From the NCBI GenBank assembly GCA_003990765.1, contig RBNJ01000235.1, positions 1 through 35,879 of the forward strand: 35,879 bases of DNA. Reading direction: 5' to 3'. Made by a program: the position numbers and the translations under genes. The notes below the pieces were generated by a model, which saw nothing but the letters and a program-made list of their open reading frames with translations, made no database searches and was not told the DNA's origin. This DNA comes from Jimgerdemannia flammicorona. Taxonomy: Eukaryota. Shown here one piece after another: positions 894 through 35,879 of this stretch (its first letter is position 1; each line of letters opens with the position of its first letter).

Positions 894-896
894 ACT

Positions 897-914
897 TAGT
901 ACCTATTGACTGGT
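897..914 (+). other. Primer-binding site of A1 (degenerate)
   Basis: 3 nt after the LTR end; TAGTACCTATTGACTGGT vs TGGTACCTGTTGGCTGGT (A2) and TGGTGCCCATTGGCTGGT (A3). Confidence 0.75.
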
Positions 915-964
915 GATACTATTAGGATCCCTTACTTTTAAGCTAAATAATGAACAACTATCAC

Positions 965-3900: not shown

Positions 3901-4989
3901 TACAGAAAGCTCAATATAATTATCAAGAAGGATAGACAGTCCTTACCAAATATTCAAGAAATCTTTACTACTCTTAGAAGTAAAGCCAAATACTACACTA
4001 CCTTAGATCTGTTCTCAGGCTTCTATCAGATTGATCTCACTCAAGATACTAGTGAGAAATCAACCTTCATTACACCTGATGTCACCTATGTCTATCTGTG
4101 AATGTCATTTGGAATATATAATATCTCTGCAAGTTTTCAGTAAATTATAAATAGAGTCTTCAGTAATGAAATTGGAAAATAGCTCTTTGTCTATATTGAT
4201 GATGTGATTATCTTCAGCAATACTGTATGGAAACATATCAACCATATATAGCTAGCTCTCAAGAAGCTCAGAAAGCATGGCCTCTATATAAAGCCCAAGA
4301 AGTATAAGTTTGTAGCTCAAGAAATTACCTATCTAGGATACATCATCAATTAGACTGGAATTCAAATAGATTTTATGAAGATTGCAGCTGTTGTAGTCTA
4401 CTCAAGACTCCAAACAACTACAGAAGTCCATGTCTTCCTTAGACTGGCCTCCTATACAGAAGATTTATCAAAGAATACTCCAACATTATAGTACCTATCT
4501 ATGAGCTACTAAAGAAGAAGATCAAATTCAAATAGATCAAAGAATGTCAAGAAATCTTCAATAAACTCAAGATCAGATTGGAATCTAGAATTCATCCTGC
4601 AGACAGATGCAAGTGCTATAGGACTTAGAGCAGTGCTAGCTCAGAAGAAAGATGGACATAAATATGTCATCTCTTATGCAAGCTAAGATACCCATAAAGT
4701 AGAATAGAACTACAAGTCATATAAGCTTAAATACTTAGTAGTAGTCTGGGTAGTAGATAAGTTCCACTACTATCTAGTCAAGAAATACTTCACTATTCAA
4801 ACAGACCATTCTGCTCTTGTCTAGCTATTCTATATTCTGAACTTTAAAGGAATATATATCAGATGGATCTACAGACTGCAAGAGTATAACTGTACTATCA
4901 AATACTACCCAGAAAGAACTAATATCAATACTGATGTACTCTTAAGGACACTCCAAAATATCTCCATCAAGACTATTTGATATGAATAA
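965..4989 (+). pseudogene. A1 Gag-protease-dUTPase-RT-RNase H polyprotein pseudogene (start approximate)
   Basis: Degenerate zinc knuckle ~1765, PR AIINTS ~2420, RT IDYRKLN / LDLFSGF / VYIDDVIIFS ~4190, RH QTDASAIGL ~4600, TDHSAL ~4800; many stops. Confidence 0.9.
3088..3502 (+). pseudogene. dut: dUTPase domain within A1 pol
   Basis: RSSLAK, GVIDFDYTGEI, DRIGQML, REEQGFGST match trimeric dUTPase motifs II-V. Confidence 0.9.
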
Positions 4990-5772
4990 AGAGCTATACC
5001 ATAGATTAATCAGCTATCTTGAGCAGTAGAAGATGCTCAACAACCTCAAACTCTGGACTATTACTATCATTAACTGAACTTGGAAATATTTGAACTAGAT
5101 AACACCATACTCAGAAAAGGAGGAAAGTTCATTATATCTAAATATAAGAAGTATCAAGTAATGAAAGAAGTATACTAACAATGATACCTAAAAGGAACTA
5201 ATATATATAACAAGGTAAGAAGAACTATGTGGTGATCTAAGATAGAAGAAAATCTATACCAATTTGTCAAAGAGTATGATAAGTACTAAAAACAGAAACA
5301 AGATCAGCAAGACCAGGTACCTGGATTATCAAGAATTGAACCTATCCCCTTCTACTACATTACAATGGACATCATTGGACCACTATCAGTAACTCTATCA
5401 GAAAACTACTATATTATAGTTATTATAGATCTCTTTACTAAATAGATAGAAGTAGACATATTACAAGAAGTTAATATTCTCTCTATTGCTGACTTTAAAT
5501 CATCTGCCACTATAAGATACCAAGACAAATTAATACAGACCATAGCACAGAATTTATCAATAGATTTTATAAAATAATATATCAGAAATACAAAATTCAG
5601 TATATCAAGACTACTATATTACTCTCAAGAAAATGGATAGATAGAAAGAACAAACAAGACCCTCAAGAACATTCTGGCCAAGATCTCAGACATATATAAA
5701 AATTAGGATAACTATCTCCCAACTACTCTCTCTGTTCTATGAGATATATAGTCACATAGTATATACTTTATC

Positions 5773-7779
5773 TGTAAGCACACAACCTCTAAGCCACTGA
5801 AATCATACATCACTCTCTGAACAAGCCATTGAAATTACATGTGACCTCTGAACAAATCTAGAAATCACCTGCAAGATCATGAAGCTGAGTGAAACTGAAG
5901 TCACAGCATATAAAGCTAAGTTAATATGAAGTTATAGAATACAAAAATTATACAAATAGGATCTTATCAATTAGGACCAAATGCCTATATCAAGCACTAA
6001 GATATGTTGAAATAGAGAACTACAACAAACCAAACAAACAATTCCAACTTCTAAACATATATACAAACATGACCACTGATATCTACAACTGCATCCATAC
6101 TGACATTTGAAATGCCATTGTCAACTGAGCCACACCTCCTCTGCCCCTCATGAATATCTATAGCTTAGCACCCCTCTACATCATGGAAGCCTGATAGAAT
6201 ATTCTGAATATACTTAGCAAAGTCCACTGAATCAGACAAATCTCAAGCTACTACCAGATCAGCTGTCTCCTAGAAGACATGGTTGAATATTACTACAATA
6301 TAGACATTTTCCAGATATCTCAATATCAGAAGCTTATTACTTGCAAATACCAAGAACTCTTTTATGAGTATAGCACTATTATTTCCTATCTCTGAGTTAC
6401 TACTACCAATATAGTTGCTACTCTATTCTATGGCCAAATTGATAATATGATATAAGAACTCAACCACAAGTATATTGAGTATATTCAAACCACAGACAGA
6501 ACCTTCTCATACCCCAATGACTATATCTTGCAAATGCTCTAAGTTGGATATACCATGAAGGACATTTATGATATAATCCAGTTCGATAACAATGAAGCAG
6601 AAGACAACAATCTCTCCAACACTGACATAATCTCAAGCCAAGGATCTCTGCTAATCCTGATCACCCTACCAATTTTGCTGATGAACTTACAATAGTTTAT
6701 AATCACCTATGAGACTTATTGGAACAATGATCACTAGTATAAGTATCAACTAATATTTATCTCTAATTACTTTAACTATAATGAAGAGACCAGAGAATAT
6801 AATCTATATCTTCAGACAACCCTCAAGATCAAACCAACAACTCCACCACTCAAGTATAAGCAATATGAAGTACAACTGCCAGTATACTACAACTCTGCAA
6901 CTCATAGCACTATAACTTATAGAAGGTATGCAGACAGCAAATCTGATGAAAGTGAAGATGATACACTCTTTCTTCACCCACCAACTCCTTATCCAGTATA
7001 TGAGACAGATGATACTATCCTATGAGATAGTGATGAAGTTTCAATATATTATTACCTCAACATATAAGGAAAAGTAATCCATAAATAACTCTTTTTAGAT
7101 AACTACTTCATCAGAGATAATATCATCAATAGTGATATCATCAAAGACTACCCAGATAGTGTTTAAATCTATAGATAGTCTAGCAGTCATAGTATAGTTA
7201 GATTAGCCTTATACTATATGACTGCATTCCAACTTAGCAAGGCACTAAGTGCTATATCTATATCTAGCCTAGTCTAGATAGCCTCTCACTAGTATAAATA
7301 TCCCCTCCCCCAGACCTCAGAATCTCAGACTTGAATACATAAGAACATTTCTAAGCACTTCTCCACAATATTCCTTCATATAACTACTACTAGTATAGCA
7401 ATATTATAAATAGCAAATAAACCTATTTAATAACCCACAAACCACTCTTAAGTAAATCTACTCTCCATTAGATCCTACTCCTAACCCTATCATGGAATTT
7501 CCTAATTGGGTATTGTCTATAGCGATATATCAATTCAACTAAGCTAGTCTTAGTTTCTTAAACTTCCTGAAATATGGAAAATCCTGAACATCCAGAACTA
7601 GTCTGAAAAAAGACTTTGGTTGAGACATTAATTTGATCTTGAAATCAATAAGTATAGAGGATGTACTCTATATGAAATTGATCTTGACCTTAAGAAAATA
7701 GTCTTCCAGAATATCCAGAACTTCCAGAAAATCTTTACAGAACTATGTAATAGTTACCCTAACAAGTAACCCTCTTATA
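5773..7779 (+). mobile_element. Solo LTR of a third family (C), ~2.0 kb
   Basis: Absent from the colinear A3 integrase; termini TGTAAG...CTTATA (= CTTACA with C>T); flanks TTATC/TTACT fit a 5-bp TSD of TTACC in the empty site; TATAAATA 7293-7300 and AATAAA 7416-7421. Confidence 0.8.
6069..7167 (+). pseudogene. Accessory ORF3 homolog inside solo LTR C (3' end approximate)
   Basis: Reads MTTDIYNCIHTDI(R)NAIVN(R)ATPPLPL...SYYQISCLL...QKLITCKYQELF when transition-derived stops are reverted; aligns with the family A LTR ORF. Confidence 0.7.
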
Positions 7780-8179
7780 TTACTCCAAGAGAACTACTCT
7801 TTAGAGAAGATTCTGATTGATAGATTGACTTAGAAATCTGAAGACTATACTAAATTAGGAAGAAGACAGAAGATTATATTATCAAGTTATAAGAATTAAT
7901 AAGAAAGAATGCAGAAAAGAATCACAAGACCCTAGAACCCATTCAAATTGGAGAAAAGGTCCTACTGTATTAAAATATAGTAGAAGCCTTATAATTATAA
8001 AAACTGAAACCCAAATAGAAAGAACTCTTCTATATATAAGATATCAAAAGAACTACCTTCTGACTTAGAAAACTCTCAGAGACCATACTATCTACTATGA
8101 TATACAGAAACAGACTCAAGAAGTATCATGAATCTATATAAGGTCCAGGAATCACCAAGACTTCTCAGTTCAAGAAAGG

Positions 8180-11756: not shown

Positions 11757-14700
11757 ACAACTACCCTGACTACAAGAGTCACCCCTGCAAGAATTCAAGA
11801 TAAGATAGAAATATGTCCCCCCACATTATATAGATATACTACTAAAGAGTCAATCATTAAAGACTTTGAATAATTTGCTACTATTCAAGCCCTCAACATG
11901 GATACATAATTGGCCCTTCTACCAGTTAGTCTCAGAGGACCTGCCAGAGGTAAGTTTAATATAGCCACTATTGCTGATGCTGGTGCAGCCAAACTTACCA
12001 ACATAAAAGCCTTTCTCAGAACAACATACTATACTGAAGAGATCAAGCAAGCTCTCAAAGATCAACTCAATACTATCTGCCAGGGACTCAGTGAAGATCC
12101 CAACTCATTCTATATCCAAATCTGCTACCAGATTGTCTTGGCTGACTATGATGACTACCTTAAGAAACAAATAGCAGATTCAACCTTCCTCAAAGGAGTT
12201 CACTCTGAAATTGCCCTAGCAATCTAGTCTACCCCAGCTGCACTGACCCTTGATCAGAAAGTGGTCTTTATATAGAGATATTAGACTACCAGACACTCAG
12301 CTAAATACTCAATAGAGAAAATAACTGGCATCAAGATAGAGCAATCAAAGTCAACTAGTATCATACCTACCATAGTTGTAAACAGACAACTATCCCTATC
12401 TATCCCCAAAGCAACCAAAGTTGATCCAGTAGAGAAACTCACCAAGCAGTTTGCTGAGATGGCTGCATATCTTGGTGATATTGTTAGAGAAGTCTGAAGT
12501 ACCAACAGGAGACCAGTGCAGAGATTTATAGCTGCTACAGAAGAATGCAATATTACATGCTTCAGATATGGAGAAGAAGGCCACTATGCAAAGAGTTGCA
12601 TGACTGAAACAAGATACAAAGCCCAGCCAATTAATGCTAGCAGAACTAGAGAACAAATCAATGCAGTAGTCATCAAGGAGATTGATGATACTGATGATGA
12701 AGAATACTATGAGGAGTTTGAATTTTACCCTGCTACTGAAGGTATCAGAACTCAGTCCAAGCCCTATGACAAGAAGAGCAACAGCAAGCCAGTTGGAAGA
12801 CCAAAGAAGACCCCAGCTATCACTATCTAAAGTAATATCCAACCTAAGGAGATTGATCAAGACATAGAGTTAGATGAAGCTATCTGCCAAATTATTGAAG
12901 GTACTACTCCAGTCTCTGGAGAAAGCAAAAGCAAGAAGAAACAGAAGCTATATAAGACTAAGATCCACTAGTATGATATCTATAAGAATCTTAAGAAATA
13001 GAAGATCAATGCTACTTTTGGACAGCTAGCTGAAGTCTCTGCCTTCAGATAGCAGTTAAGAGTAGGACTTGCAACTACTGCCAAGAATAAAGAGTATAAG
13101 ATTGTAGAAGCTTACAATGCACAAGAAGATGATCAAGAAGACTTAGGTAAAGAATCTGAAGACCAGTGTAAGACATCAGCCTATACCCTATGTCAGATTG
13201 AAGATTGTATCTTTGATGCCATTATTGATACCAGTGCTGGAAGATATCTCATGAGCAAGAAAGTCTAGACTGGGACATTGAAGAGTCCACCAAGATGGTC
13301 TATGTTACAGTAGATGGTACACAAGCTACCCCTCTTGGCAAAATCTGAGAAGTCTCCATTAAGATAGAAGGAGCTATCATCCCAGTAGATGTGATTGTTA
13401 TAAGTACTACCAATTATGATATTCTCATTAGTAATCAATGGCTTTACAAGGCCAAGGCCATTATTGATCTCAATGTCTAGAAGATATAGATCAACTATAG
13501 AGAAAGAAAGATACAAGTCTCTATTAATGTCCACAAAGGAGTTCTACCAGACATAGAGAAAGGAGATGAAGAGGATACAGAAGTCTTCATACACTTGGTG
13601 AAAAAAAATAAAAATAAGACACCCAAGCTCACAGATGAGTAGTAGTATAACAAGATCATCAATAACTATACTTCTCAAGAAAGCTGCCCCCATGGTACTA
13701 GGATGTACTGCTCTGAACACCTGAATGACTGCTGGTCCTATATCAGTGAAGTCAGGAAAATCTATCAACAGAAGCATGAGCAAGAAGCTACTGAAGTAAA
13801 AAGGAAAGCTGAAGAAGATGACCAGCCCCCAGAGCTGTAAGCTGACAGTGATGATGAGGAGGAATAAGAACCAGACATCATCCTCAAGGTTAAAAAGTTT
13901 CACCCTGAAGCCAAGATCCCAGAATATAAGACTAAAGGAGCCATAGGAATAGACCTTGCCAGTATTCAAGATACTACTCTTGAACTACAGACCACCACTC
14001 TACTTAGTACCAGAATTGGAGTCAAGCTGCTAGAGAACCATGTTGAAATTATCAAGACCAGAAGCAGTCTGGCCAAAGAGTAATTGACCCTGATTACACT
14101 GGTGAGATCTTCCTCATAGTCAGGAATTACAACCCCACTACCCCATTCAAAGTTAAGAAGTATGACAGGATTGGCCAGATACTGATCTATGAAATTAAGA
14201 AGCCCAAGATCACTGAAGTCATTGAACTCATCAAGATCAAGAAAGGAGAACAAGGCTTTAGATCTACTGAAAGAGGAGTCTATACAGCCACCAAGATTAC
14301 CAAACTTGAGCACAAGAAAGACAAGGACCAGAATAAGTACACATATATCATTGGAGAAAACTTTCCTCTGGAAGAACAACTTCCTAAGATCCTATACTAG
14401 AATGAAAGAGTACTTGCTACAGACTTCAAGAATATCTACAATCAAGAACTCAAGTACTATTATGAAGTTGATACTAGTAATACCAAGCCCATCTACCAGA
14501 AACTCAGACCCATACCACCTACCTATAGAGAATGACTGCAAGCAGAACTCAAGGAAATGGAAGAAGCTGGAATTATCAAGCAAGCTATCAGTCTCTGGGC
14601 TTCACCTATTGTCCTTGCCCCAAAGAAAGGAAGCAAGCCTGGAGAGTTTGTGTTAAGACTCTGCATTGACTACAGAAAGCTCAATACAATCATCAAGAAG

Positions 14701-15568
14701 AATAGACAGTTCTTGCCAAATATTCAAGAAATCCTTACTACTCTTGGAAGCAAAGCCAAATACTACACCACCTTGGATCTGTTCTCAGGCTTCCATCAGA
14801 TTGGTCTCACTCAAGATGCCAGTGAGAAATCAGTCTTCATCACACTTGATGCCACATATCTACCTGTGAATGCCATTTTGGAATATGCAATACCCCAGCA
14901 AGTTTTTAGTAAATAATGAACAGAGTCTTCAGTAATGAGATTGGAAAATAGCTCTTTGTCTATATTGATCATATGATCATCTTCAGCAATACTACACAGA
15001 AATATATCAACCACATACAGCTAGCCCTCAAGAAGCTCAAGGAGCATGGCCTCTACATCAAGTCTAATAAATGTAAGTTTGTGGCTCAGGAAATCGCCTA
15101 CCTAGGACATCTCATCAACCAGACCAGAATCCACACAGACCCCATGAAGATTGAGGCTATTGCAGCCTACCCAAGACCCAGAACAATCACAGAAGTCCAT
15201 GCCTTCCTTGGACTGACCTCCTACTACAGAAGATTCATCAAAGAATACTCTAACATTACAGCACCTATCTATGAGCTACTGAAGAAGGAGGTTAAATTTG
15301 AATGGACCAAAGAACACTAAGAAACCTTCAATGAACTCAAGATCAGATTGACCCAAGCATCTATCCTCAGAAGACCAGATTAGAACCTATAGTTCATCCT
15401 ACAGACAGATGCAAGTGCTATAGAATATAGAGCAGTCCTAGCTCAGAAGAAAGATAGACATGAATATGTCATCTATGCAAGCTGAGATACCTGTAGAGTA
15501 GAACAGAACTATGAGTCATGTAAGTTCAAATGCTTGGCAGTAGTTTGAGCAGTAGACAAGTTTTACTA
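11757..15568 (+). pseudogene. A2 Gag-PR-dUTPase-RT-RNase H(partial) pseudogene
   Basis: CFRYGEEGHYAKSC knuckle, AIIDTSAG, dUTPase ~13880-14272, WASPIVL/RLCIDYRKLN/LDLFSGFHQI, FLGLTSYYRRFI, QTDAS. Confidence 0.92.
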
Positions 15569-17231: not shown

Positions 17232-17750
17232 TTAGTCATGATACTTCTTGAGTTGGTTTCAGCAAATAGTAGTAGGGATGATTATTTCTATAAGTTTTCA
17301 TAACCAAAAGGTAGTCTCTTTTATATCTTGCACAAGATAAGGTCCTTCTCACTTAGACTTTAGTTTTCATGACCATGAAGCTTCTACCATGTTCTGATAT
17401 ATCAGGACCTTATCTCCTATCTTGATAATCTCTAGGGGCTTATGGATTTTTTCTGTATTATTCCATTGTAGTGTCTGCATCTTAGTTATGTAATTCTCAG
17501 CCTTCTTTATAATTTGGTATAGTCTCTATATTTCTCTGTCTACACATTTTCATACAGTATTCCTATTAGATAATAGAGTTTCTTGAGAACTTTCTTCTCT
17601 GAACAGCATTTTCCAGAGAGTGAAATGAGTGCTTTGTGATCAAATATTTCAGAGAGCAGATAATACTATTGATAGATAGTGATCTCAGTTTTCATAGTTA
17701 TTACAGATCTTGGCAATAATATTCTTAAGAGTCTTATTGGTCCTTTCTGT
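17232..17750 (-). pseudogene. B integrase, C-terminal part
   Basis: ERTNKTLKNIIAKI ... EGPYLV ... NQLKKYHD*. Confidence 0.85.
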
Positions 17751-19244
17751 TGTCATGTAGTGGTCGCTGAGTCCTTCAAATATACCAGATTCTCTTCAAG
17801 ATGTATCTCTTAGACTAACTCAAGTTTGTTATAAGCAAGTTCTTATTGGAGTGCCTTCCCAAGGTCTTATAGTCCTCAAACTTCTTATCTTTAACTATCT
17901 TGTTATCTCTTAGATTGCTTGCAAGGCAGTGTATATAAGTGAAATCAGAACTGACTTTATTTTAGAGGAAATAAGAGGGGTATTTATACAAAATATAATT
18001 CAATAGTTGCTAAGATATAAAGCTAAATATAAATTCCAATAACTAAAACTACTAAGTTCCAGAGTTGGTACTGATGGTTGTACAGGTTCAGGATACTGGT
18101 ATAATTCAGTATCACATCAGAATACTGATGCTGGAATAATTTCGTGTTATCTCAGAATACCAGTGCTGGTATTATCTAGTGTAATAAAGAACTTAGAGCA
18201 GAAAGTTCAGGACCATGGAGGCTTCATCCTCATCATCAGAGGTCAGGATATCTTTGAAGGAGATGAGGTCCACAAATTTGTCATTTTTGCATACTTCAAT
18301 GTTGTGTGGAGTGACATCATTGCTGATGATGTCATCACATTTAGTGGTAGGAAGGAGGTCTGGGGCTCTCTAGTCCATGAGGTTCTCTTCCACAAAATAG
18401 GGGACAAATGTGGGGTCTTGGGGAGATCTATCTCAGATACTTGGGCCTTGGAATACTAAGATCAATCCTTGCAGAAATTGGTCTGGGTTGTCTTGGAGGA
18501 TGGGGTGTCAGAAGTCTTCTATTTCATCACTATTGAGAGTGATAGTAGACTGGGCTTCTGTAGCCACCCTGGCTTCTAGTGCATTGATATGGCAGGATGA
18601 CAGGTCTCTGAAATCTAAGACTCTAACATACTCCAAGTTGGGGATCGACTATAGTGCATGCCTGAAGATCTAATGGATCTTCTTAGCTATCTTTGTTTTG
18701 CATATATCCATAGGAGTGGCATCTTATAGCTCTTGAGTGCTGGCCTGTAGGAACTCCTGGCAGAGGAGATTTCCTATTTTGTACTCCTGCCACATTTGGA
18801 GGCATTCAGTAGCAATGGTGATCCTTGTTTCCATTTCATAGTAGTAGAGGATAAAGTTATAGGGATCTGCAGTACCCAGGTTGACACTAGGAGTCCTTCT
18901 TGAGCAGGTCCTCATGGCTCTTCTGATGTCTTAGAATATCCTTTCCTCAACTAAGAGGCCTTGGTAATTCCTTGATCTTGAGGTTTGGCAGGCAGTAGGC
19001 ATTTCATTTGTGATAAGTCTTTGAGCTATTTTGGGATTGGTGGTTCTTGTTGGTTGCTGCTACTGCAGTTCCTTGATCCTTCTTTTATATTCTTCAGGAT
19101 GCTTGTACTGTGGTCACAATGACTCACAGTTGGTCATCATTGCTCATCTCATATGCCATATGATCTTCTTGTACTCTGATCTGGTGGCTTGCAAGGAAAG
19201 GCTGTCTCCTGTGCTGATGTCATTATTTTGGGGTTGCTGTTACA
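17751..19244 (-). repeat. A3 3' LTR (1494 bp)
   Basis: TGTAACA...ATGACA on minus strand; colinear with 24940-26418. Confidence 0.95.
18193..19002 (-). pseudogene. Accessory ORF3 in the A3 3' LTR
   Basis: Same frame as track ORF 18724-18915; ends ...MVLNFLL*. Confidence 0.78.
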
Positions 19245-19253
19245 TCTTCCCCT
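19245..19253 (-). other. A3 polypurine tract
   Basis: AGGGGAAGA abutting TGTAACA. Confidence 0.85.
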
Positions 19254-19556
19254 GAATAAGGATCTTCCTGAACATCCTTATTCATTGGTCCAGTCCTGAA
19301 AAATTTGCTGATCCCATAACCTCTGGCAAGGGGTTGAAAAGTGGTATTTATGGGCTGGTGTCTTCCCTTTGTATTTTGGTGTGATGGTGAAGGGTTGCTC
19401 CCTTCATATAGAGCAAGGGCCTGATTCTGATCTTGACCAATCAGTTGATGGTTCAAACTCCTCTAACTTCGAAAGTCTCATGGATAAGTAGTTACCAGTG
19501 CCATATCCCTTAGTGAATGGTCCAGACAGATAGCCTGCTGGTCATGGGACATACTG

Positions 19557-20804
19557 TTATGATTTGCAGACTAGAACCTTATGGGCAGTCATCACATTTT
19601 GCTTCTCTTGTATAGGTTTGTGGTACTTCTTGAGTCTGTTCCTATGTACTGTAGTAGGTAATATGGTCCCTGAGATTTTTTTAAGCCAGATGGTGGTTCC
19701 CTTGATATCTTGTACATAGAAGGGTTCTTCTCATTTGGGCTCCAGTTTTCGCAACCATGAGGCTTCTACCATATTTTGATACAGTAGAATCTTTTCTCTG
19801 ATTCAGATGGATTCTAGGACCTTGTGATTCTTTTCCACATTCTTTCTTGTTAGTGCTTGTGACTTGGTGATGTAATCTTTAGCCTTCTTCCTAATTTGGT
19901 ATAGTCTCTGGATTTCTGCATCAACCCATCTCTAAGTTAGGTTTAGATTTGTGGCTGAGGTTCCATCAGAATCTTCTTCTCTGAAGAGCAGCTCTCTTGG
20001 GGTAAAGTGTGTACTCTGTGACTATATATCTCATAGGATAGAGAGGGCAGTTGGGAGATAGTTATCCCAATTCTCATATGTCTCTGAGATCTTCACTAGG
20101 ATGTTCTTGAGAGTCTTGTTAGTTCTCTCTGTCTATCCATTTCCTTGAGGGTGGTATACAGTGGTCTTGATGTGCTGGATCTTGTATTTCTGATATATTA
20201 TCTCATAAAATCTATTGACAAATTCTGTTCCATAGTCTGTTGTGATTTGTTTTGGTATCTTGTAGCAGCAGATGATTTCTCAGTACAGGAAGTCAGCTAT
20301 AGAGAGGACATTGGCTTCTTGTAATACTCCTACCTCTATTCATTTGGTGAAGAGGTCTACAATAACTATAATATAGCGGTTTTCTGATAGTATTACTGGT
20401 AGTGGTCCAATGATATCCATTGCAATGTGGTGGAAGGAGATAGGCTCAATTCTTGATGACTCAGGTGCCTGGTCTTGCTGATCTTGTTTCTGTTTTTGGC
20501 ACTTGTCACACCCTTTGACAAATTGGTGCAGGTCTTCTTCCATCTTGGATCACCACATAGTTCTTCTTGTCTTATCATATGTGTTAGTTCCTCCTAAGTA
20601 TCCTTGCTTGTGTACTTCCTTTATTACTTGATACTTCTTGTGTTTGGATATTACTAGCTTTTCTCCTTTTCTGAGTGTAGTGTTGTCTAGTTCAAACTGT
20701 TTTCAAGTTTGGTTGATAATAGTGATTATCCAGGGTTTGAGGTGGTTGGTCATCTTCTGCTGCCCAAGATAGCTGATTAATCCATAGTATAGCTCTTTAT
20801 TCAT
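19557..20804 (-). pseudogene. A3 integrase (separate ORF, MNKELYYGLISYL...); 3' end approximate
   Basis: HKQGYLG...CDKC zinc finger, AMDIIGPLP, TDYGTEF, YHPQGNG(Q)TER, KLEPK..EPF, RNRLKKY. Confidence 0.92.
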
Positions 20805-23800
20805 ATTGAATAGTCTTGATGGGGATGTTTTGGGGTATCCTTGAGAGTGCATCGGCATTGGTGTTGGTCTTTCCTGAGTGGTGCTTGACAGTATAGTCAT
20901 ACTCTTGCAGCCTGTAGATCTATCTGGCATATATTCATTTAGAGTTCAGAGTGTGGAATAGCCAGGTAAGAGCAGAGTGGTCTGTTTGAATGGTGAAGTA
21001 TTTCCCAGATAGGTAGTAGTGGAACTTGTCTACTGCCCAAACCACTGCTAAGCATTCAAGCTTATATGACTCATAGTTCTGTTCTGCTCCATAGATACCT
21101 CAGTTTACATAGGAGATGAAATATTCATATCCATCTTTCTTCTGAGCTAGGACTTCTCCAAGTCCTATAGCACTTGCATCTGTCTGCAGGATGAATTCTA
21201 GATTCCAGTCTGGTCTTCTGAGGATAGGTGCTTGGGTCAACCTGGTCTTGAGTTCATTGAAGGTTTCTTGGTGCTCCTTGGTCCATTCAAATTTGGTCTT
21301 CTTCTTCAGTAGCTCATAGATAGGTGCTACAATGTTGAAGTATCCTTTGATAATTCTTCTGTAGTAGCTGGCCAGTCCAAGGAAGGCATGGACTTCTGTA
21401 GTTATTCTGAGTCTTGGGTAGACTGCAACAGCCTCAATCTTCATAAGGTCTGTATAGATTCTGGTCTGGTTGATGAGGTGTCCTAGATAGGCGATTTCTT
21501 GAGCTGCAAACTTAAATTTCTTGGGCTTGATGTAGAGGCCATGCTCCTTGAGCTTCTTGAGGGCTAGCTGTATGTAATTGATATATTCCTATATAGTGTT
21601 GCTGAAGATGATCACATCATCAACATAAACAAAGAGCCATTTTCCAATATCATTGCTGAAGACTCTGTTCATCATTTGCTGGAAACTTGCTAGGGCATTG
21701 TACATTCTAAATGGTATTCGCAGGTAGATATAGGTGGTATCAGGTGTGATGAAGGCTGATTTCTCACTGGCATCTTGAGTGAGACCAATTTGATGGAAGC
21801 CTGAGAACAGATCCAAGGTGGTGTAGTATTTGGCTTTGCTTCTAAGAGTGATAAGGATCTCTTGAATATTTGGCAAGAGCTGTCTATCCTTCTTAGTGAT
21901 GGCATTGAGCTTCCTGTAGTCAATGCAGAGTCTTGGCACAAACTCTCCAGGTTTGCTTCCTTTCTTCAGGGCAAGGACAATGGGTGAGGCCCAGGGGCTG
22001 ATAGCTTGCTTGATGATTCTGACTTCTTCCATTTTCTTGAGTTCTGCTTACAGCCACTCTCTGTAGGCAGGTGGTATGGGTCTGGCTTTCTGGTAGATGG
22101 GCTTGGTATTACCAGTGTCAACTTCATAGTAGTACTTGAGTTCTTGATTGTAGATATCCCTGAAGTCTGTAGCAAGTACTCCTTCATTCTGGTGCAGGAT
22201 CTTGAGAAGTTGTTCCTCCAGGGGAAAGCTTTCTCTAATGGTATATGTGTGCTTGTTCTAATCCTTGTCTTTCTTATGTTCAAGTTTGGTAATCTTGGTG
22301 GTAGCACAGGCTCCTCTTCCAGTAGATCCAAAGCCTTGTTCTCCTCTCTTGGTCTTGATGAGTTTGATGGCTTCAATGATCTTGGGTTTCTTGATTTCAT
22401 AGATCAGCATCTGGCCAATCCTGTCATGCTTCTTGACTTCGAATGGGGTGGTGGGGTTGTGATTCCTGACTATGAGGAAGATCTCACCAGTGTAATTAGG
22501 GTCAATTACTCCTCCTTCAACTGAGATTTCACTTTTGGCCAAACTGCTCCTGGTCTTGATAATTCTGGCATGGTTTTCTGGCAGCTTGACTCCAATTCCA
22601 GTGCCAAGTAGGGTGGTGGTCTGTGGTTCAAGGGTAGCATCTTAAATGCTGGTAAGGTCCATTCCTATGGATCCTTTAGTCTTGTATTCTGGGATCTTGG
22701 CTTCAGGGTGAAACTTCTTGACCTTGAGGGTGATGTCTGATTCTTGTTCCTCCTTATCATCACTGTCAGCTTGAAGCTCTGGGGGCTGGTCATATTCTTT
22801 GGCTTTCCTTTTTGCTTTGGTGGCTTCTTGCTCATGTTTCTGTTGGTGGATTTTCCTGACTTCACTGATACAGGACCAGCAGTCATTCAGGTGTTCAGAG
22901 CAGTACATCCTAGTACCATGGGGGCATCTTCCTTGAGGGGCATACCTATCGATGATCTTGTTGTACCACTGCTCATTTGTGAGCTTGGGTGTTTTGTTCT
23001 TGTTCTTGTTCACCAAGTTCATGAAGACCTCTGTGTTCTCTTCATCTCCTTCCTCCATGTCTGGTAGAACTCTCTTGTGGACATTGATAGAGACTTGTAC
23101 CTTTCTTCCTCTATAGTTGATCTGCATTTTCTGGGCATTGAGGTCAATGATGGCCTTGGCCTTGTGAAGCCATTAGTTGCCAATGAGGATGTCATAGTTG
23201 GTGGTGCTTGTAACAATCACATCTACTGGGATGGTAGCTCCTCTTATCTTAATGGGGACTTCTCGAATTTTGCCAAAGGGGGTAGCTTATGTACCATCTG
23301 CTGTAACATAGACCATCTTGGTGGACTCTTCAATGTCCCAGCCTAGGTGGTTAATTGTCTTCTTGCTCATAAGGTATTCTCCAGCACCAGTATCAATGAT
23401 GGCATCAAAGATACAGTCTTCGATTTGACATAGAGTATAGGCTGATATCTTGCACTAGTCTTCAGATTCTTCACCTAAGTTCTTAGATTCTTCCTGTACA
23501 TTGTGAGCTTCTACAATCTTGTACTCTTGATTCTTAGCAGTAGTTGCAAGTCCTACTCTCAACTGCTATCTGAAGGCAGGGACTTTGACTAGCTATCCAA
23601 AAGTGGCATTGACCTTCTGTTCCTTGAGATTCTTATAGATATCATACTGGTGGATCTTGGTCTTGTGCAGCTTCTGTTCCTTCTTGCTTTCACTTTCTCC
23701 TGAGACTAGAGTAGTATCTTCAATGATTTGGCAGACAGCTTCATCTAACTCTATGTCTTGATCAATCTCCTTGAGTTGGGTCTTGCTTTGAATATTGACA

Positions 23801-24868
23801 GCTGGGGTCTTCTTTGGTCTTCCAACTGGCTTATATTACTCTTCTTATCATAGAGCTTGGACTGGGTTCTGGTACCTTCAGTAGCAGGGTAGAATTCAAG
23901 CTCCTCATAGTATTCTCATCATCAGTGTTACCAATCTCCTTGATGACTACTGTATTGGTTTGTTCTCTGGTTCTGCTAGCATTACTTGGTTGGGCTTTGC
24001 ATCTTGTTTTGGTCATGCAATTCTTTGCATAGTGGCCTTCTTCTCCATATCTGAAGTATGTGATATTGTGTTCTTCTATAGTAGCTGCAAATCTCTGCAC
24101 TGGTCTTCTGTTGGTACTTCAGACTTCTCTAACAACATTACCAAGGTATGCAGTCATCTCAGTGAACTACTTGGCGAGTTCCTCCACTGGGCCAGCTTTG
24201 GCTGTCTTGGGGGTAGGTGGGGTTGGTTGTCTGTTTACAACTATAGCAGGTATGATACTAGTTGGCTTTGATGGCTCTATCTTGATGCTAGTTATTTTCT
24301 CTATTGAGTGTTCAGCAGGGTGTCTGGCAGTCCAATATCTCTGTGCAAAGACTACTTTCTAATCAAGGGTCAGTACAGCTGGGGTAGACTGGATTGCTAG
24401 AGTAATTTCAGGGTGAACTCCTTTGAAGAAGATTGAATCTGCTATTTGTTCTTGAGGTGGTCATCATAGCTAGCCAAGACAATCTGGTGGCAGATTCAGA
24501 TATAGAATGAGTTGGGATCTTCACTAAGTCTCTAGCAGATAGTATTGAGTTGATCCTTGAGAGCTTGCTTGATTTCTTCAGTATAATATGTTGTTCTGAG
24601 GAAGGTCTTTATGTTGGCAAGTGTGGCTGTACCAGCATCAGCAATAGTGGCTGCATTGAACTTATCTCTGGCAGGTCCTCTGAGGCTGACTGGTAGAAGG
24701 GCCAATTGAGCATCCACACCAAGGGCTCATATGGCAGCGAATTGTTCAAAGTCTTCAATGAAGATCAGGATTGACTCTTCAGTAGTATATCCATAGAATG
24801 TGAGGGGGCACATTTCTATCTTATTTTGAATTCTTACAGAAGTGACTCTTGTAGTCAGAGTAGTTGTT
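20797..24868 (-). pseudogene. A3 Gag-PR-dUTPase-RT-RNase H polyprotein pseudogene (start approximate)
   Basis: Track fragments 24717, 23127, 22542, 22032 and 21444 are in one frame; AIIDTGAG, SPWASPIVL, VYVDDVIIFS, QTDASAIGLG, NADALSR. Confidence 0.95.
22318..22730 (-). pseudogene. dut: dUTPase domain within A3 pol
   Basis: GSIGMDL, RSSLAK, GGVIDPNYTGEI, DRIGQML, RGEQGFGSTG = motifs I-V. Confidence 0.95.
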
Positions 24869-24918
24869 GTGGGGGTTGTTCATTTTTTAGCTTGAAAGTG
24901 AGAGATTTGTCTTGAATC

Positions 24919-24936
24919 ACCAGCCAATGGGCACCA
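24919..24936 (-). other. Primer-binding site of A3
   Basis: TGGTGCCCATTGGCTGGT, 3 nt after the 5' LTR. Confidence 0.85.
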
Positions 24937-24939
24937 AGT

Positions 24940-26418
24940 TGTAATGTAGTGGTCACTGAGTCCTTCAAATATACCAGATTCTCTTCAAGGTATATCTCTT
25001 AGACTAACTCAAGTTTGTTATAAGCAAGTTCTTATTGGAGTGCCTTCTCAAGATCTTATAGTCCTCAAACTTCTTATCTTTAACTGTCTTGTTATCTCTT
25101 AGATTGCTTGTAAGGAAGTATGTATAAGTGAAACCAGAACTGACTTTATTTCAGAGGAAATAAGAGGAATATTTATACAAAATATAATTCAATGGTTGCT
25201 AAGATATAAAGCTAAATATAAATTCCAATAACTAAAACTACTAAGTTTCAGGGTCGGTGCTGATGGTTGTACAGGTTCAGGATACTGATATAATTCAGTG
25301 TCACATCAGAATACCAGTATTGAAACAATTTTGTGTCACCTCAGAATACCAGAGCTGGCATTATCTGGTGTAACAAAGAACTTAGAGCAGAAAGTTCAGG
25401 ACCATAGGGGCTTCATCCTCATCATCAGAGGTCAGAATATCTTTGAAGGAGATGAGGTCTGCAAATTTGTTATTTTTATATGCTTCAATGTCACATGGGA
25501 TGATGTCATCACATTCAGTAGCAGGAAGGAGGTCTGGGGCTCTCCAGTCTATGAGGTTCTCTTCTACAAAATAGGGGACAAATGTGGGGTCTTGGGGAGA
25601 TCTAACCTGGATACTTGGGCCTTGGAATACTGAGATCAATCCTTGCAAAAATTGGTCTGAGTTGTCTTGGAGGATGGGGTGCCAGAAGTCTTCTACTTCA
25701 TCACTATTGAGAGTGATAGTGGACTGGGCTTCTGTAGCCACCCTGGCTTCTAGTGCATTGATATGGTGGGATGATAGGTCTCTGAAATCTGAGACTCTAA
25801 CATACTCCAAGTTGGGGATCGACCATGGTGCATGCCTGAAGATCTGATGGATCTTCTTAGCTGTCCTTGTTTTGCATATATCTATAGGAGTGGCATCTTG
25901 TAGCTCTTGAGTGCTGGCCTGTGGGAACTTCTAGCAGAGGAGGTTTCCTATTTCATACTTCTGCCACATTTGGAGATATTCAGTAGCAATGGTGATCCTT
26001 GTTTCTATTTCATAATAGTAGAGGATAAAGTGATAGAGATCTGTAGTACCCAGGTTGACACTAGGAGTTCTTCTTGAGTGGGTCCTTATGGCTCTTCTGA
26101 TGTCTTGGAACATCCTTTCCTCAACTGAGATGCCTTGGTAATTCCTTGACCTTGAGGTTTGGCAGGCAGCAGGCATTTTGTTTGTGATAAGTCTTTGAGC
26201 TATTTTGGGATTAGTGGTTCTTATTGATTGCAGCTACTGTGGTTCCTTAATCCTTCTTTTATATTCTTCAGGATGCTTGTACTGTGGTCATAATGACTCA
26301 CAGTTGGTCACCATTGCTCATCTCATATGCCATATGATCTTCTTGTGCTCTGATCTGGTGGCTTGTAAGGAAAGGCTGTCTCCTGTACTGATGTCATCAT
26401 TCTGGGGTCACTGTTACA
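24940..26418 (-). repeat. A3 5' LTR (1479 bp)
   Basis: TGTAACA...ATTACA on minus strand. Confidence 0.95.
25382..26176 (-). pseudogene. Accessory ORF3 in the A3 5' LTR (264 codons, one premature stop)
   Basis: Track ORFs 25931-26176 and 25382-25810 are in frame; the TAG is TGG/CAG in other copies (ancestral CGG). Confidence 0.85.
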
Positions 26419-27094
26419 CTGTCTATCTATTTTCTTAAGGATGATATGCTGTAGTCTGAATATATTGGATCTTGTACTTCTTATAGAGAATCTCAAAGAA
26501 CTAGTTCACAAATTCTATTTCTCTGTCTATAGTTACTTGTATTGAGGTCTTGAACTGACAGATAATTTCTTTGTGAAAGAAATCAGCAATTAACTATACA
26601 TTAGCTTTCTTGAGGGGTTCTGCCTCTATCCATTTTGTGAAAAGGTTTATGATGATAATGATATATCAGTTACCAGTCAAAGTCAAGGGTAGAGAGCCAA
26701 TTACATCTATTACAATGTAGACAAATAGTACTGGTTCTATGTGTACTGATCTTGGGGCTTAATTTTATTGATCTTGTTTCTGTTTCTAGTATTTTTTACA
26801 GGTCTTGACAAATTGTCTGATATCTTCTTTCATTCCTGGCCACCATATTGTCCTTTTTGCTTTATCATATATGTTCATTTCCCCTAGATGACTAAGTTTA
26901 TATACTGATTTCATTACTTGCTTCTTCTTGTGTTCTGGTATAACTAGTAGCTTTCCTTTCTTCAATATTTCTTCATCAGTTTCAAATTGTTTTCATATTC
27001 TGTTGATAATCATTTATATCTATTCTTCCAAATATTGGGGCATCTTTCACTATCTCAGATAGGTGATCATTCTATAGTAGAGCTCTTTATTCAT
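26419..27094 (-). pseudogene. B integrase, N-terminal part (MNKELYYRMITYL...)
   Basis: HLGEMN...WWPGMKEDIRQFVKT, DVIGSLP, DLFTKWIEAEPL, TTAYHP. Confidence 0.88.
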
Positions 27095-30000
27095 GATTGA
27101 TTTGCTGGTTGGAGGTCCTTCAGAGTATCTATGAGAGGGTATCTACATTGGCATTGGTTCTTCCTGAGTGATGCATAATGGTTATATCATATGCTTGCAA
27201 CTTTATAATCTATCTGGCATAGATTCCTTTGGGTTGTCCAGTGGTCAGTAGCCAAGTGAGAGCTGAGTAGTCTATCTGAATAGTGAAGTATCTTTTGGTG
27301 AGATAGTAGTGGAACTTTTCTATAGTCCAGATAACTATGAGATATTCTAACTTATAAGATTCATATTCTTTTTTGGCTCCTCAGATCCCTCAGCTTAAGT
27401 ATACAATGATATACTCCACTTTGTCATTCTTTTGAGCTAGGACTGCTCCTAGTCTTTGAGTACTTGCATCTGTCTATAGGATAAATTCTTGAGTCCAATT
27501 AGATTTCCTGAGAATAGATGTCTGAATCAATCTGATCTTAAGCTCATTGAATGCTTTTTATTACCTACCAGTCTATTGAAACTTGGTATTCTTCTTGTTG
27601 AGTTCATAGATTTGGCCTACAATATTGGAGAATTCTCTAATAAATCTTCAGTAGTAGGAGGTAAGTCCTATGAAGGCTTGGGCTTCAGTAACTGTGATAG
27701 GCTTTGGGTATGCTGCTACTGCTTGAATCTTGAGAGAGTCTATGTATGTTCTATCTAAATTAATGATATGGCCAAGATAGATAATCTTGATTTCTACAAA
27801 CTTGTACTTCTTGGGCTTAATGTGAAGACCATGCTGTCTCAGCTTCTCTATTATCTGCTAGATGTACTACAGATATTCTTTGGCTGTCTTGCTGTAGATA
27901 ATAATGGCATCTACATAAACTATCATCCATCTTCTCATATTATAGTAGAAGATTTTGTTCATTATTTACTGGAAGCTTACAGGGGTATTGCACATTCTAA
28001 ATAGCATTTGCAGGTAGATATAGATTCCATCTGGAGTGATAAAGGCTGATTTCTCACTTACTATTTCTGTGAGTCCAATTTGGTGGAATCCTGAGTATAG
28101 ATCCAAGATACTATAGTATTGTATTTTATCTTCCAGAGTTATAAGGATGTCATTAATAAGGAGCAGTGATTGGCAATTCTTCTTAGTAACTATGTTGAGC
28201 TTTCTATAATCAACACAGAGTCTTGGGGCAAATTCTCCAGGCTTATTTCCTTTCTTCAGAGTTAGTATAACTGGTAAAGACCAGAGGCTGCCAGTCTCCT
28301 TAATAATACTGGCTTCTTCTATCTATTTGATTTCTTCTCTGAGCCATTCTCAGTAGGCTGGTAGGACAGGTCTTGTCTTCTGGTAAATTAGTTCAGATCT
28401 CCAGTATCTACATCATAATAGTAATGTAGAGTCTTTTCTTTGATATCCTTGAAGTCCATGGTAAGGATATCCTCAAATTTGTAAAGTATTTTCTTGAGCT
28501 CCATCTTGAGTGAGAATTTATTTCCAATAGTATAGCTATACTTATTTGTAGTTTCTTCTTTCTTATGCTTCAGCTTGGTAATCTTAATATAAGTAAATAC
28601 TCTTCTTTCTGTAGATTCAAATCCTTTCTTTCCTCTTTCTGTTTCCTCCAACTTCTTGACTTCTATAATCTTTGGCTAAAGAACTGGGAAGATCAATATC
28701 TATACTAGTCAGTTCTTCTTCTTGATTGGGAATGGAATCATAGAATTGTAGTTCCTAGCAATAAGTAGTATTTCTCCAATATAATCCAAATTGATGACTT
28801 CTTCTTCAATTGTGATTTCACTTCTAGCCAGGTTGCTTCTTATCTTGAGGATCCTGATATAGTCCTTTAGAATGATCACCTCTAGACCAGTTACAAGTAG
28901 AGTGATTGTCTGAGGTTTGAGTACAGTTTTCTCCACTATGGCAATATCTATTCTAGCTATATTTTCTGACTTATATTCTAATAAGACTGTATTAGGATAA
29001 ATCTTCTGAATCTTGATCTTGATTTCTCTTCATTATCACTATCTTTGAAAAGAGCTGATGGTTCATCATCCTCTTCTTCTTTCATTTTCTTTTCTTCTCT
29101 TATCTGTTTCTTGAGGGCCTTCTCTCTTCTTTGGTAATAGATCTCTTTAATTTTACCAGTGCACTGATAATACTCATTGACATGCTTTATACAGTATATT
29201 TAGATCCCATAGAGGCAGACTTCTTGTGGTGCATATCCTTTTATAATCTTCTTGCACCAGTCTTTTTTGCTCATCTATCTGATTTTCTTCTTCTTTTTCT
29301 GAGTTGTTACTATGTAGGCTTTCTCTTGTTCACTCTTTTCTTTCTCTATCTCAGGCAGGACTCTTTTGTTAATATTGATGGAAATTCATATCTTCTATCT
29401 ATAGTAGATAATCTGCATCTTCTGAGTATTTAGATTGATTATTACCTTAGCTTTATGAAGCCACTGGTTACTGATAAGAATGTTATAGTTGGTTGTATTG
29501 ATAATAATTATATCTACTGGAATGATTACTCCTCCAAACTTAATGAAAACATCTCAGATCTTTCCCAGAGGTGTGGCTCTTGTACTATCTGCTGTTATGA
29601 ATACCAATTTGGTTGCTTCTTCAACTTCTCAATCTAGGTAGTCTGCTGCTTTCTTACTGAGGAAGCATTCTTCTATATTGAAGACTCTATCCTCGATTTG
29701 ATAGATTGTATAGACAGAGGTCTTACAGTTATCTTCACTTTCTTCTCCTGAGTCCTTTTGAACATTGTTGGCCTCAGTTATCTTCTATCCTTACTCCTTG
29801 GTTGTTTTAGTAAGTTCAAACCTCATTTGCTATCTGAATGTAGGTATTTCTGCTAGCTGGCTGAAGGTTGCATTGACTTTTTGTTGACTGAGATCCTTGA
29901 AGATATCATACTTAAAGGTCTTGGTTTTGCAAAGCTTCTTCTTCTTTTCTCCTTCACTGGCTGAAGTGGTTCCTCAGATGATATCTTGAATAGCCTGTTC

Positions 30001-30095
30001 TAGCTTCATATCTTGATCTGTTTCTTCATCTTGACTTTCTATAGTAGTCTCTATCTGCTTTTCCACAGGATTCTTCTTGGGTCTCTCTGGTAGTC
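27087..30095 (-). pseudogene. B Gag(C-term)-PR-dUTPase-RT-RNase H pseudogene
   Basis: RPKKNP gag segment, dUTPase RSNLAR/VINLDYIGEI/RGKKGFEST (~28605-29015), RLCVDYRKLN, LDLYSGFHQI, YVDAII, TDASTQ; the PR active-site segment appears deleted (~29675). Confidence 0.88.
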
Positions 30096-30278
30096 TCTTG
30101 TAGAGTTCTTTGCAGATATCCTTCTTACATCTTTCTCTGATAACATTCAGATTATACAACTTTCTGACAATATTCATGACACAGTTTTTGAAGAAAAGAT
30201 ACTAATATTATAGTGACTAATGAGTATTCTAAGAAGCATATTAGACAGGGTGGCTCTGGTGCATTCAACTGACAATAT

Positions 30279-32220: not shown

Positions 32221-32234
32221 AGAAGATAAGCTTA

Positions 32235-35800: not shown

Positions 35801-35879
35801 GATAGAGAAAATCTGTAGATAGAGTGAGAGGAAAGTTGGAGTAGTGGGTAGCAGAGTGGTTTTCAAGTATGAGGGTATA

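Follow-up and report, generated by a model that had tools for sequence, protein, structure and literature searches.

A probably ancestral frame offset between RNase H and integrase in a clade of Ty3/gypsy-type LTR retrotransposons

We analyzed a 35,879-nt stretch of DNA from Jimgerdemannia flammicorona (contig RBNJ01000235.1, positions 1-35,879 of the forward strand; hereafter, the window) with respect to the junction at which the RNase H (RH) frame of its long terminal repeat (LTR) retrotransposons ends and the integrase (IN) begins. The window is AT-rich (GC content 0.26-0.46) and is filled by nested copies of two related families, A and B, as delimited by self-BLAST, with the diverged family B sharing 65-68% nucleotide identity with family A. 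Copy A3 (17751..26418, minus strand) is a full-length, dead Ty3/gypsy-type element located inside the integrase of copy B. Its termini are TG..CA (sense ends TGTAAC...ACA), and it is flanked by a 4-bp target-site duplication, CTGT on the plus strand, at 17747-17750 and 26419-26422. The 5' LTR (about 1.5 kb; 24938..26418) and the 3' LTR (17751..19244), both on the minus strand, were assigned by self-BLAST and by reading of the termini; the two repeats (17749-19244 and 24938-26418) are 91.3% identical. By-eye reading yielded a primer-binding-site-like sequence, TTGGTGCCC, with TTGGTGCCCATTGG two bases past the 5' LTR, and a polypurine-tract-like run, GGGGAAGA, ahead of the 3' LTR.

Two open reading frame (ORF) remnants fill the interior of A3. 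ORF1 (20797..24612, minus strand) encodes Gag with a degenerate CCHC knuckle, the protease (PR), a dUTPase, the reverse transcriptase (RT), and RNase H, as identified by translation, Pfam, and tblastn with the intact ORF1 of the related locus L017. ORF2 (19617..20804, minus strand; Pfam, tblastn) lies in the +1 frame relative to ORF1 and encodes an integrase with an H2C2 zinc finger, an rve core, and a GPF motif, interrupted by 12 stops. The N-terminus of gag and pol share frame -3 in tblastn, and an internal piece of gag in frame -2 is read as a lesion. The stretch translated between 20800 and 24000 contains 19 in-frame stops, and its Pfam domains (residues 191-1034) follow six of them.

The A3 frame that carries the protease, dUTPase, RVT_1, and RT_RNaseH domains closes with ...NADALSRIPQNIPIKTIQYE-TAA at 20799-20797 on the minus strand. 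The +1 frame opens at an ATG at 20804, 5 nt upstream of this TAA (MNKELYYGLISYLG...), and carries the Integrase_H2C2 and rve domains. The stop and the start overlap in the octamer ATGAATAA (20797..20804, minus strand), with the integrase ATG at 20804-20802. In tblastn with intact relatives, ORF1 residues 255-1248 fall in one high-scoring segment pair (HSP) of 1015 residues (23832..20830, frame -3), and integrase residues 1-396 fall in another (20804..19617, frame -1; 396 aa, 81.6% identity to the intact integrase of the family A locus L018), a single-base frame step away from ORF1. The same +1 step was observed in copy A1 (frame +1 to frame +2), where the octamer is located at 4982..4989 on the plus strand, and in copy B (frame -1 to frame -2), where it is located at 27087..27094 on the minus strand. 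An earlier, sequence-only reading of the window had placed the octamer at these three sites, had let the integrase start in the +1 frame from an ATG 5 nt upstream of the ORF1 TAA, and had noted a different upstream linker in family B. All three statements agree with the Pfam and tblastn results and with a 312-column alignment of the three junctions, which is gap-free within about 100 nt of the junction, includes an invariant 14-mer, ATGAATAAAGAGCT, and shows that families A and B have different linkers immediately upstream. The number of octamers in the window is ordinary (5 versus 3.34 expected, with 23/100 shuffles reaching 5), and thus the significance of the octamer lies in its position at the junction. 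Its two further copies, at 263-270 (plus strand) and 19278-19285 (minus strand), are unrelated to the junctions. The latter lies about 30 nt ahead of the polypurine run and the 3' LTR, in a short part of A3 that is untranslated, and was taken as a chance occurrence.

Copy A1 spans approximately 1221-8132 on the plus strand. Its ORF1 remnant (1221..4989; tblastn) contains several frame-breaking indels and an additional TGA two codons ahead of the terminal TAA. The first part of its integrase (4982..5778; tblastn) has a 1-nt deletion near 5087, about 107 nt downstream of the junction, and the remainder is found at 7773-8132. The interrupting DNA (5779-7772) is about 2 kb of unrelated, very AT-rich sequence without a Pfam match in the three forward read-through frames. 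In copy B, the ORF1 remnant (27087..30129) and the N-terminal part of the integrase (26429..27094), both on the minus strand, were delimited by self-BLAST and tblastn; the C-terminal part of the integrase is located at 17750-17235, beyond the A3 insertion.

All four copies in the window, including the truncated copy A2, are dead and contain many stops and indels, as would be expected if the frame offset were merely a lesion shared by dead or non-autonomous copies. The decay of A1, A3, and B looks like methylation-linked deamination or deamination of the repeat-induced point mutation (RIP) type. Substitutions C>T and G>A make up 156/253 (62%) of the differences of A3 from the intact L018 and L017, 146/173 (84%) of those of A1, and 357/696 (51%) of those of B, and the rate of deamination-type hits falls in the order CpG, CpA, CpC, CpT. 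Such point mutations leave frames unmoved, and therefore the frame layout of long stretches can still be read. Genomic contigs from four sequencing runs (X1, X2, X6, and X9; 825 pieces of at least 80% likeness to 20400-21200) contain no indel between 20784 and 20940, so that no contig joins the RH and IN frames; the only indels observed were at 20460/20463, 20779/20783 (one contig), and 20941/20943. Most differences of these contigs from the window are A>G or T>C, which indicates that the window copy is the mutated one. With regard to the origin of related DNA, nine of the ten sequencing runs listed share a small part of the window words (0.18 at best), and these runs are soil metagenomes and a sample coded 'organism A'.

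Intact relatives were identified using the A3 integrase, with stops read as X, as a query, which retrieved stand-alone proteins of 404-433 aa. One of them (P0003) is an intact family A integrase with 83% identity to the query, and another (P0004) is family-B-like. An alignment of eleven intact integrases was then used to scan metagenome contigs of the Joint Genome Institute (JGI), resulting in 497 matched stretches, 408 of which were confirmed; the best 80 of these 408 were analyzed. The loci of the relatives, which come from soil metagenomes, contain one ORF of 1258-1595 aa for Gag-PR-dUTPase-RT-RH followed by a separate integrase ORF of approximately 410-430 aa. Thus, the L004 locus has ORF1 at 455-5242 (1595 aa) and the integrase at 5239-6495 (418 aa); ORF1 comprises 1484 aa in L009 and 1258 aa in L017, and the intact integrase of L018 comprises 415 aa. 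Pfam assigns zf-CCHC, aspartic protease, dUTPase, RVT_1, and RT_RNaseH to the single open frame of ORF1, and Integrase_H2C2 and rve to the next ORF, in each of L004, L009, and L017. Gag and Pol are fused in these elements, and the integrase alone is split off. A variant genetic code was considered and rejected as an explanation of the split, since each of TAA, TAG, and TGA serves as the ORF1 stop in some of the loci, and the ORFs, read with the standard code, stay open over a great length.

RH and IN are kept apart by a stop and a change of frame in all 23 non-redundant loci and in the three window copies that retain the junction. The sequence-only reading had taken the separate integrase ORF for a design of the lineage and had stated that this view would be overturned by copies that are young and intact and yet carry RH and IN fused in a single frame; every intact copy examined is split, and fused forms were found only outside the clade. 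Given intact ORF1 and integrase ORFs with the same junction (L018, L017, and L004), at least 337 clusters of stand-alone integrase proteins at E <= 1e-60, and the lack of frame-joining contigs, the chance that the offset is a shared lesion is practically negligible. Judged from these comparisons, the offset is almost certainly the layout ancestral to a distinct and widely distributed clade of Ty3/gypsy-type elements, whose integrase forms a second cistron that has an AUG of its own.

The breadth of this clade was estimated by profile searches. Among proteins of a length near 410 aa, 337 clusters matched the integrase profile at E <= 1e-60; the best 120 of these 337 score 494-691 bits and all originate from metagenome sources. 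Several of the stand-alone integrases are mislabeled as InsO/IS30 transposases. The nearest ESM Atlas cluster of stand-alone integrases (approximately 407 aa) consists mostly of Rotifera (phylum known for 77/86), and Mucoromycota are also encountered among the ESM Atlas neighbors; these assignments serve as leads only, and the AT-rich flanks of the elements would be compatible with either group. Longer proteins (759-2165 aa) score at most 392 bits with the same profile, the next being at 308 bits or less. The 392-bit match, P0024, is a gene model of Rhizophagus clarus and the only named close relative among the longer proteins. Its sequence passes from ...YDYDIKYRK straight to EQLYYDLY and omits the C-terminal motif of RNase H, the tail, and the initial Met-Asn of the integrase, which may reflect a predicted intron laid over the stop/start junction, i.e., an artefact of gene prediction. 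A real short intron, removed from part of the transcripts and fusing RNase H to the integrase in frame, would give a model of the same shape. Such splicing, however, would strip RNase H of its conserved ...GKxNxNADALSR end, would use splice signals that by eye are not conserved across the clade, and would leave the conserved AUG and the adjoining stop unexplained; we consider it very improbable.

In addition, an exhaustive HMMER pass was made over 1.84 billion representatives, and the matches were re-scored by their best single domain. The top 24 proteins (at least 326 bits) are all no longer than 635 aa, and the highest-scoring fused protein reaches 323 bits. Nineteen of these 24 proteins cover profile positions 1-3; 17 begin there with Met-Asn, Met-Asp, or Met-Glu, and the remaining two (P0287 and P0325) have a longer call and still a Met at this point. 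According to Pfam, four longer stand-alone proteins contain the integrase only, and the fused ones contain RH and IN. Proteins of 2000-3600 aa with high total scores were rejected as fused members of the clade, being chimeric gene models with two to four integrase copies of at most 300 bits each and of the canonical fused RH-IN type. Several such eukaryotic models, among the proteins P0250-P0258, chain two to four retroelement copies into one protein, and eukaryotic gene models around these elements look unreliable. The P0325 protein (632 aa) is a divergent stand-alone integrase with a C-terminal Ulp1-type peptidase C48 domain (Pfam E-value 1.7e-12). No fused RH-IN form was found inside the clade in the two database searches or the fetched loci, and all fused forms encountered in these searches fall below the span of similarity covered by the split clade. 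Nine outgroup loci with at most 37% identity (L050, L051, L061, L064-L066, L068, L069, and L071) encode the integrase in one ORF with YxDD and/or DALSR.

The integrase start codon is ATG in all in-clade loci with junction DNA (29/29, duplicates included) and in the three window copies, and in the same 29 loci the RNase H frame, recognized by its ...ADALSR motif, differs from the integrase frame and stops beside this ATG. Among 126 database relatives re-aligned to the integrase profile, 15 are N-terminal fragments that do not cover positions 1-3; the other 111 all have a Met at profile position 1, with 106 of them beginning there and five being longer calls. At the homologous position, the fused relatives lack a Met. 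For the analysis of junction geometry, the set was reduced to 23 loci by removal of duplicates (L004 = L003, L033 = L008, L058 ~ L030, and L045 = L034), the short L034, and the degenerate L037. The distance from the A of the ATG to the first base of the ORF1 stop is -5 (1 locus), -2 (7 loci), +1 (7 loci), +5 (4 loci), +7 (1 locus), or +8 nt (3 loci), and the corresponding junctions have the forms TGAtcATG, TAATG/TGATG, ATGA, ATGAATAA/ATGAATAG, ATGGAAGTAG, and ATGn6TGA. Two of these forms, ATGA and TAATG/TGATG, occur in seven loci each, and the family of the window uses ATGnnTAA instead. Therefore, the conservation of the octamer, which the sequence-only reading had emphasized, holds for the three window copies and is kept only in part across the clade, where the other junction forms are used as well. 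The same applies to the frame: the integrase is in the +1 frame relative to ORF1 in the window copies and in 7/23 loci (L009, L010, L011, L012, L017, L018, and L020), whereas the other 16 loci have it in the -1 frame. From ADALSR to the stop, ORF1 has a non-conserved tail whose length ranges between about 9 and 35 codons, and thus the adjacency of stop and start is not a by-product of a fixed tail.

A phylogenetic tree of integrases was constructed for 24 in-clade loci, A3, B, and seven fused outgroups; A1 was left out because its integrase is broken by the indel and the insert. The split forms are monophyletic (support 99/98). Integrases in the +1 frame are found in two places on the tree: L010, L011, and L020 fall together with the -1 form L024 (clade support 100/99), and a second group, L009, L012, L017, L018, A3, and B, is nested among the ATGA forms. 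The fewest changes between the fused, +1, and -1 states on this tree number four, and a tree forcing the +1 forms together was rejected by the approximately unbiased (AU) test (p-AU 1.2e-7; the group was named after the tree was seen). Thus, at least three switches of the frame relation took place, with the stop remaining beside the ATG.

Coupled termination-reinitiation at the integrase AUG appears to be the most likely mechanism, with a probability of roughly 60%. It is favored because the conserved AUG, the stop that always lies within a few bases, and the lack of a fixed frame direction are all explained by it. From the sequence comparisons we infer the translational mechanism, stoichiometry, and packaging of the integrase as follows. 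Ribosomes finishing ORF1 on the full-length RNA would reinitiate at the adjoining AUG; in the family of the window, this would involve a 5-nt backward step of the ribosome from the UAA at which it terminates to the AUG (AUGnnUAA). The integrase would be made as a free protein in a lower amount than Gag-Pol and would join the particle in trans. The stop/start spacings by which junctions with a TURBS, short for termination upstream ribosome-binding site, are defined (AUGnnUGA, UAAUG, and AUGA) are encountered among the clade loci, and 14/23 loci have a junction of the victorivirus type, AUGA or UAAUG. Of the three mechanisms offered by the sequence-only reading, namely termination-reinitiation, a +1 frameshift, and a subgenomic mRNA, the comparative data favor the first and argue against the second.

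A programmed frameshift would yield a Gag-Pol-IN fusion, by a +1 step at the stop (GAA-UAA-A) in the family of the window and by a -1 step in other branches. Known examples of +1 shifting at a stop or slow codon are Ty1, Ty3, and antizyme. Heptamers of the type X_XXY_YYZ are found in 7/16 loci of the -1 class (CCCTTTC in L022, L025, L030, and L032; GGGAAAT in L029; and two in L031), and the integrase frame is open from the heptamer sites. Nevertheless, heptamers are absent from the other nine loci of this class and from all seven loci of the +1 class, where the codon ahead of the stop varies (GAA, CCT, CAC, or GCG) and no shift site is conserved. The direction of the shift would differ between close relatives, no significant downstream stimulator is predicted in the 12/12 loci analyzed, and neither the fully conserved AUG nor a nearby stop would be needed. 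Furthermore, the ORF1 stop is followed by a purine, which provides a strong termination context, in 7/7 loci of the +1 class. Frameshifting as the general mechanism is therefore unlikely, although -1 shifting may contribute in some branches.

Alternatively, the separate cistron may be expressed from its own spliced or internally promoted subgenomic mRNA or from an internal ribosome entry site (IRES), the overlap reflecting only compact packing. Retroelements do express downstream genes from spliced RNAs, e.g., env of gypsy, a conserved AUG is expected equally under this account, and the P0024 model skips the C-terminal motif of RNase H and the junction in the manner of a predicted intron. On the other hand, the P0024 junction was read at the protein level only and may be an artefact of gene prediction, and no AG acceptor is conserved by eye ahead of the AUG or of the ELYY codons (L010, L001, and L009 have none). 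The location of the ORF1 stop within -5 to +8 nt of the AUG in 23/23 loci, through at least three frame changes and with a variable tail, would also be left unexplained. We consider expression from a separate RNA or an IRES possible but doubtful.

Several observations weigh against termination-reinitiation or limit the comparative argument for it. The loci are phylogenetically related, so that their counts are not independent events, and tight packing of ORFs alone could favor short overlaps. The N-termini of the database proteins come from gene callers that are obliged to pick a start codon; the tblastn-based check of the DNA is independent of the callers. The calicivirus TURBS motif 1 (UGGGA) is not enriched upstream of the junction (1/21 loci versus 0.9 expected). 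In pseudoknot-free folding, 16/20 loci, including the family of the window, have no significant RNA structure upstream, and two of them, L017 and L018, are unusually unstructured in this region (z-scores +1.3 to +1.6). No downstream structure was detected in 12/12 loci, and RNAalifold predicted 0 pairs in the 23-locus alignment. Given the absence of motif 1 and of these structures, no cis-element was found that would hold the ribosome after an ORF of 1258-1595 codons. Finally, the canonical -1 slippery heptamers of 7/16 loci of the -1 class lie within the last 90 nt of ORF1. The upstream 5-mers that are enriched are those encoding ADALSR. Local hairpins located 24-31 nt past the stop in each locus were considered as downstream structures and dropped, their z-scores being between -1.2 and +1.2 in 12/12 loci.

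A strong upstream hairpin was predicted in one subclade, where it ends 5-6 nt ahead of the stop/start (z-scores -2.9 to -4.9, with 0/200 shuffles as good). It is located at 140-172 in L022, 2759-2795 in L032, 1797-1835 in L028, and 1329-1362 in L016, in each case ahead of TAATG/TGATG. In L028, the stem is kept by compensatory changes, which appear as coupled Gly>Pro and Phe>Trp codons. The consensus fold of eight sequences of this subclade is weak (-2.15 kcal/mol), since L016, L026, and L031 are out of register. As a separate observation, the 3' arm of the hairpin in L022, L025, L030, and L032 contains the -1 slippery heptamer CCCTTTC, 18 nt ahead of the stop.

Taken together, these elements may represent a large clade of polycistronic LTR retrotransposons that encode a Gag-PR-dUTPase-RT-RH polyprotein, an integrase produced by TURBS-independent reinitiation, and, in some branches, a third ORF; we consider the chances for and against this fuller description to be evenly balanced. 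The third ORF, of approximately 170-230 aa, starts 26-131 nt ahead of the integrase stop or, in L009, 116 nt past it (L004:6467-7159, L009:7189-7704, L022:1345-2004, L026:2436-3122, L016:2635-3255, and others). It has no Pfam match and is homologous across subclades, e.g., 30% identity between L004 and L009 (E-value 3e-21). Matches to it were detected by tblastn in 25/80 loci and neither in the window nor in L017 or L018, and the family of the window seems to be without it.

The integrase of retroviruses and LTR retrotransposons normally enters the particle as the C-terminal portion of Gag-Pol, with gag-pol recoding determining its dose. A split integrase raises the testable question of how integrase is dosed, as well as the question of how a free integrase finds the reverse-transcription complex. 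If termination-reinitiation holds, the integrase would stand alone among retroelement enzymes in not arriving at the particle within Gag-Pol, and the clade would provide a natural case, in cellular genomes, of reinitiation after a long ORF and a new solution for integrase dose and recruitment in trans. The natural variants of one junction (ATGA, TAATG, ATGnnTAA, and ATGn6TGA, with or without the upstream hairpin) would be useful for studying TURBS-free reinitiation after very long ORFs. For annotation, the split implies two kinds of error: metagenome pipelines of the prokaryotic style label such integrases as 'transposase InsO/IS30 family', and eukaryotic gene predictors may span the junction with false introns, as in P0024.

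Copy A2 (ORF1 remnant at 12003..15566, plus strand; self-BLAST, tblastn) is cut off at 15568, ahead of the RH/IN junction, and is therefore uninformative in this respect. In the region 30001-34000, the GC skew is very strong, with an excess of G on the plus strand (+0.42 to +0.49), and the AT skew is slightly positive; the gag end and the 5' LTR of copy B should account for part of this region. No tandem repeats were found in 30000-35879, and the ORFs of 30001-34000 have no Pfam match. Outside the elements, no Pfam match was obtained for 20 ORFs and read-throughs, and no Rfam family, tRNA, or host gene was detected in the window.

Ty3/gypsy elements normally encode the integrase within an uninterrupted Pol, from which the protease releases it. 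The elements described here share with this group the LTRs with TG..CA ends and a target-site duplication (A3), the domain order PR-RT-RNase H-IN (A3; L004, L009, and L017), and a CCHC Gag, and they depart from it in having the integrase outside the Pol polyprotein. The full-text literature, apart from supplementary tables, most subscription journals, and Repbase Reports, yielded no description of a Ty3/gypsy element with the integrase as a separate cistron. The comparisons with published systems below refer to the cited passages of the respective sources. A dUTPase between PR and RT was reported for Vesta, Juno, and TelKA of bdelloid rotifers, PosPlaTy3-5 of fungi, and Tmt1 of Tuber (PMC5408684, PMC2864245, PMC6431247). 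These elements have in common with the present clade the TG..CA LTRs, the CCHC Gag, the order PR-dUTPase-RT-RH-IN, the GPY/F motif, and the absence of a chromodomain. As described there, their integrase is part of pol, whereas it is a separate cistron here; the bdelloid LTRs are 159-551 bp long and mostly accompany a gag-pol frameshift, whereas here the LTRs are about 1.5 kb long and Gag-Pol is one ORF.

The junction geometry resembles that of viral termination-reinitiation systems. VP1/VP2 of caliciviruses and M1/BM2 of influenza B virus are coupled at AUGnnUGA, UAAUG, or AUGA (PMC3542737, PMC10275272), and at the AUGucUGA junction of rabbit hemorrhagic disease virus (RHDV) the ribosome steps back 5 nt (PMC3542737), as proposed above for the family of the window. 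The likeness comprises the same three geometries, a long upstream ORF, and offset frames; in these viruses the downstream protein is separate and made in a lower amount. Their TURBS motif 1, UGGGA, located 40-90 nt upstream, is complementary to helix 26 of the 18S rRNA (PMC3542737). In contrast to these RNA viruses, the present, putative system is a DNA-integrated eukaryotic retroelement in which the motif is not enriched. Stop-restart at AUGA/UAAUG also operates in fungi, in the CP/RdRp pair of victoriviruses and ORF A/B of Cryphonectria hypovirus 1 (CHV1) (PMC6631646), and in Helminthosporium victoriae virus 190S (HvV190S) it requires an RNA structure, an H-type pseudoknot, directly upstream of the junction (PMC6631646, PMC2699510). 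The efficiencies quoted for viral reinitiation are 4-20% (PMC6631646). There, AUGA/UAAUG decouples an enzyme from the capsid protein, and the strong upstream hairpin of one subclade here is a further point of likeness; the differences are the class of element and, for the family of the window, the absence of predicted upstream structure in pseudoknot-free folding.

Among retrotransposons, the non-LTR element SART1 couples ORF1 and ORF2 at UAAUG in a manner reported to depend on a downstream structure (PMC10275272). It thus provides an example of a retrotransposon with stop/start coupling for a downstream enzyme ORF; its coupling joins Gag-like and Pol proteins, whereas the coupling proposed here falls within the usual extent of Pol, with no downstream structure detected. 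Reinitiation also operates on the polycistronic RNA of cauliflower mosaic virus (CaMV) (PMC10275272, PMC5902531). It needs a viral transactivator there. The +1 frameshift of the yeast LTR elements Ty1 and Ty3 (PMC5911963) links gag to pol, uses a defined heptamer, and involves no start codon. The step described here differs from it in its location between RH and IN, in its conserved AUG, in the lack of a conserved shift site, and in the -1 offset of sister lineages. Foamy viruses and hepadnaviruses express Pol independently of Gag and recruit it in trans. In these viruses and in the Caulimoviridae, the whole Pol or other ORFs are uncoupled, whereas in the present clade this applies to the integrase only, and PR-RT-RH stays fused to Gag.

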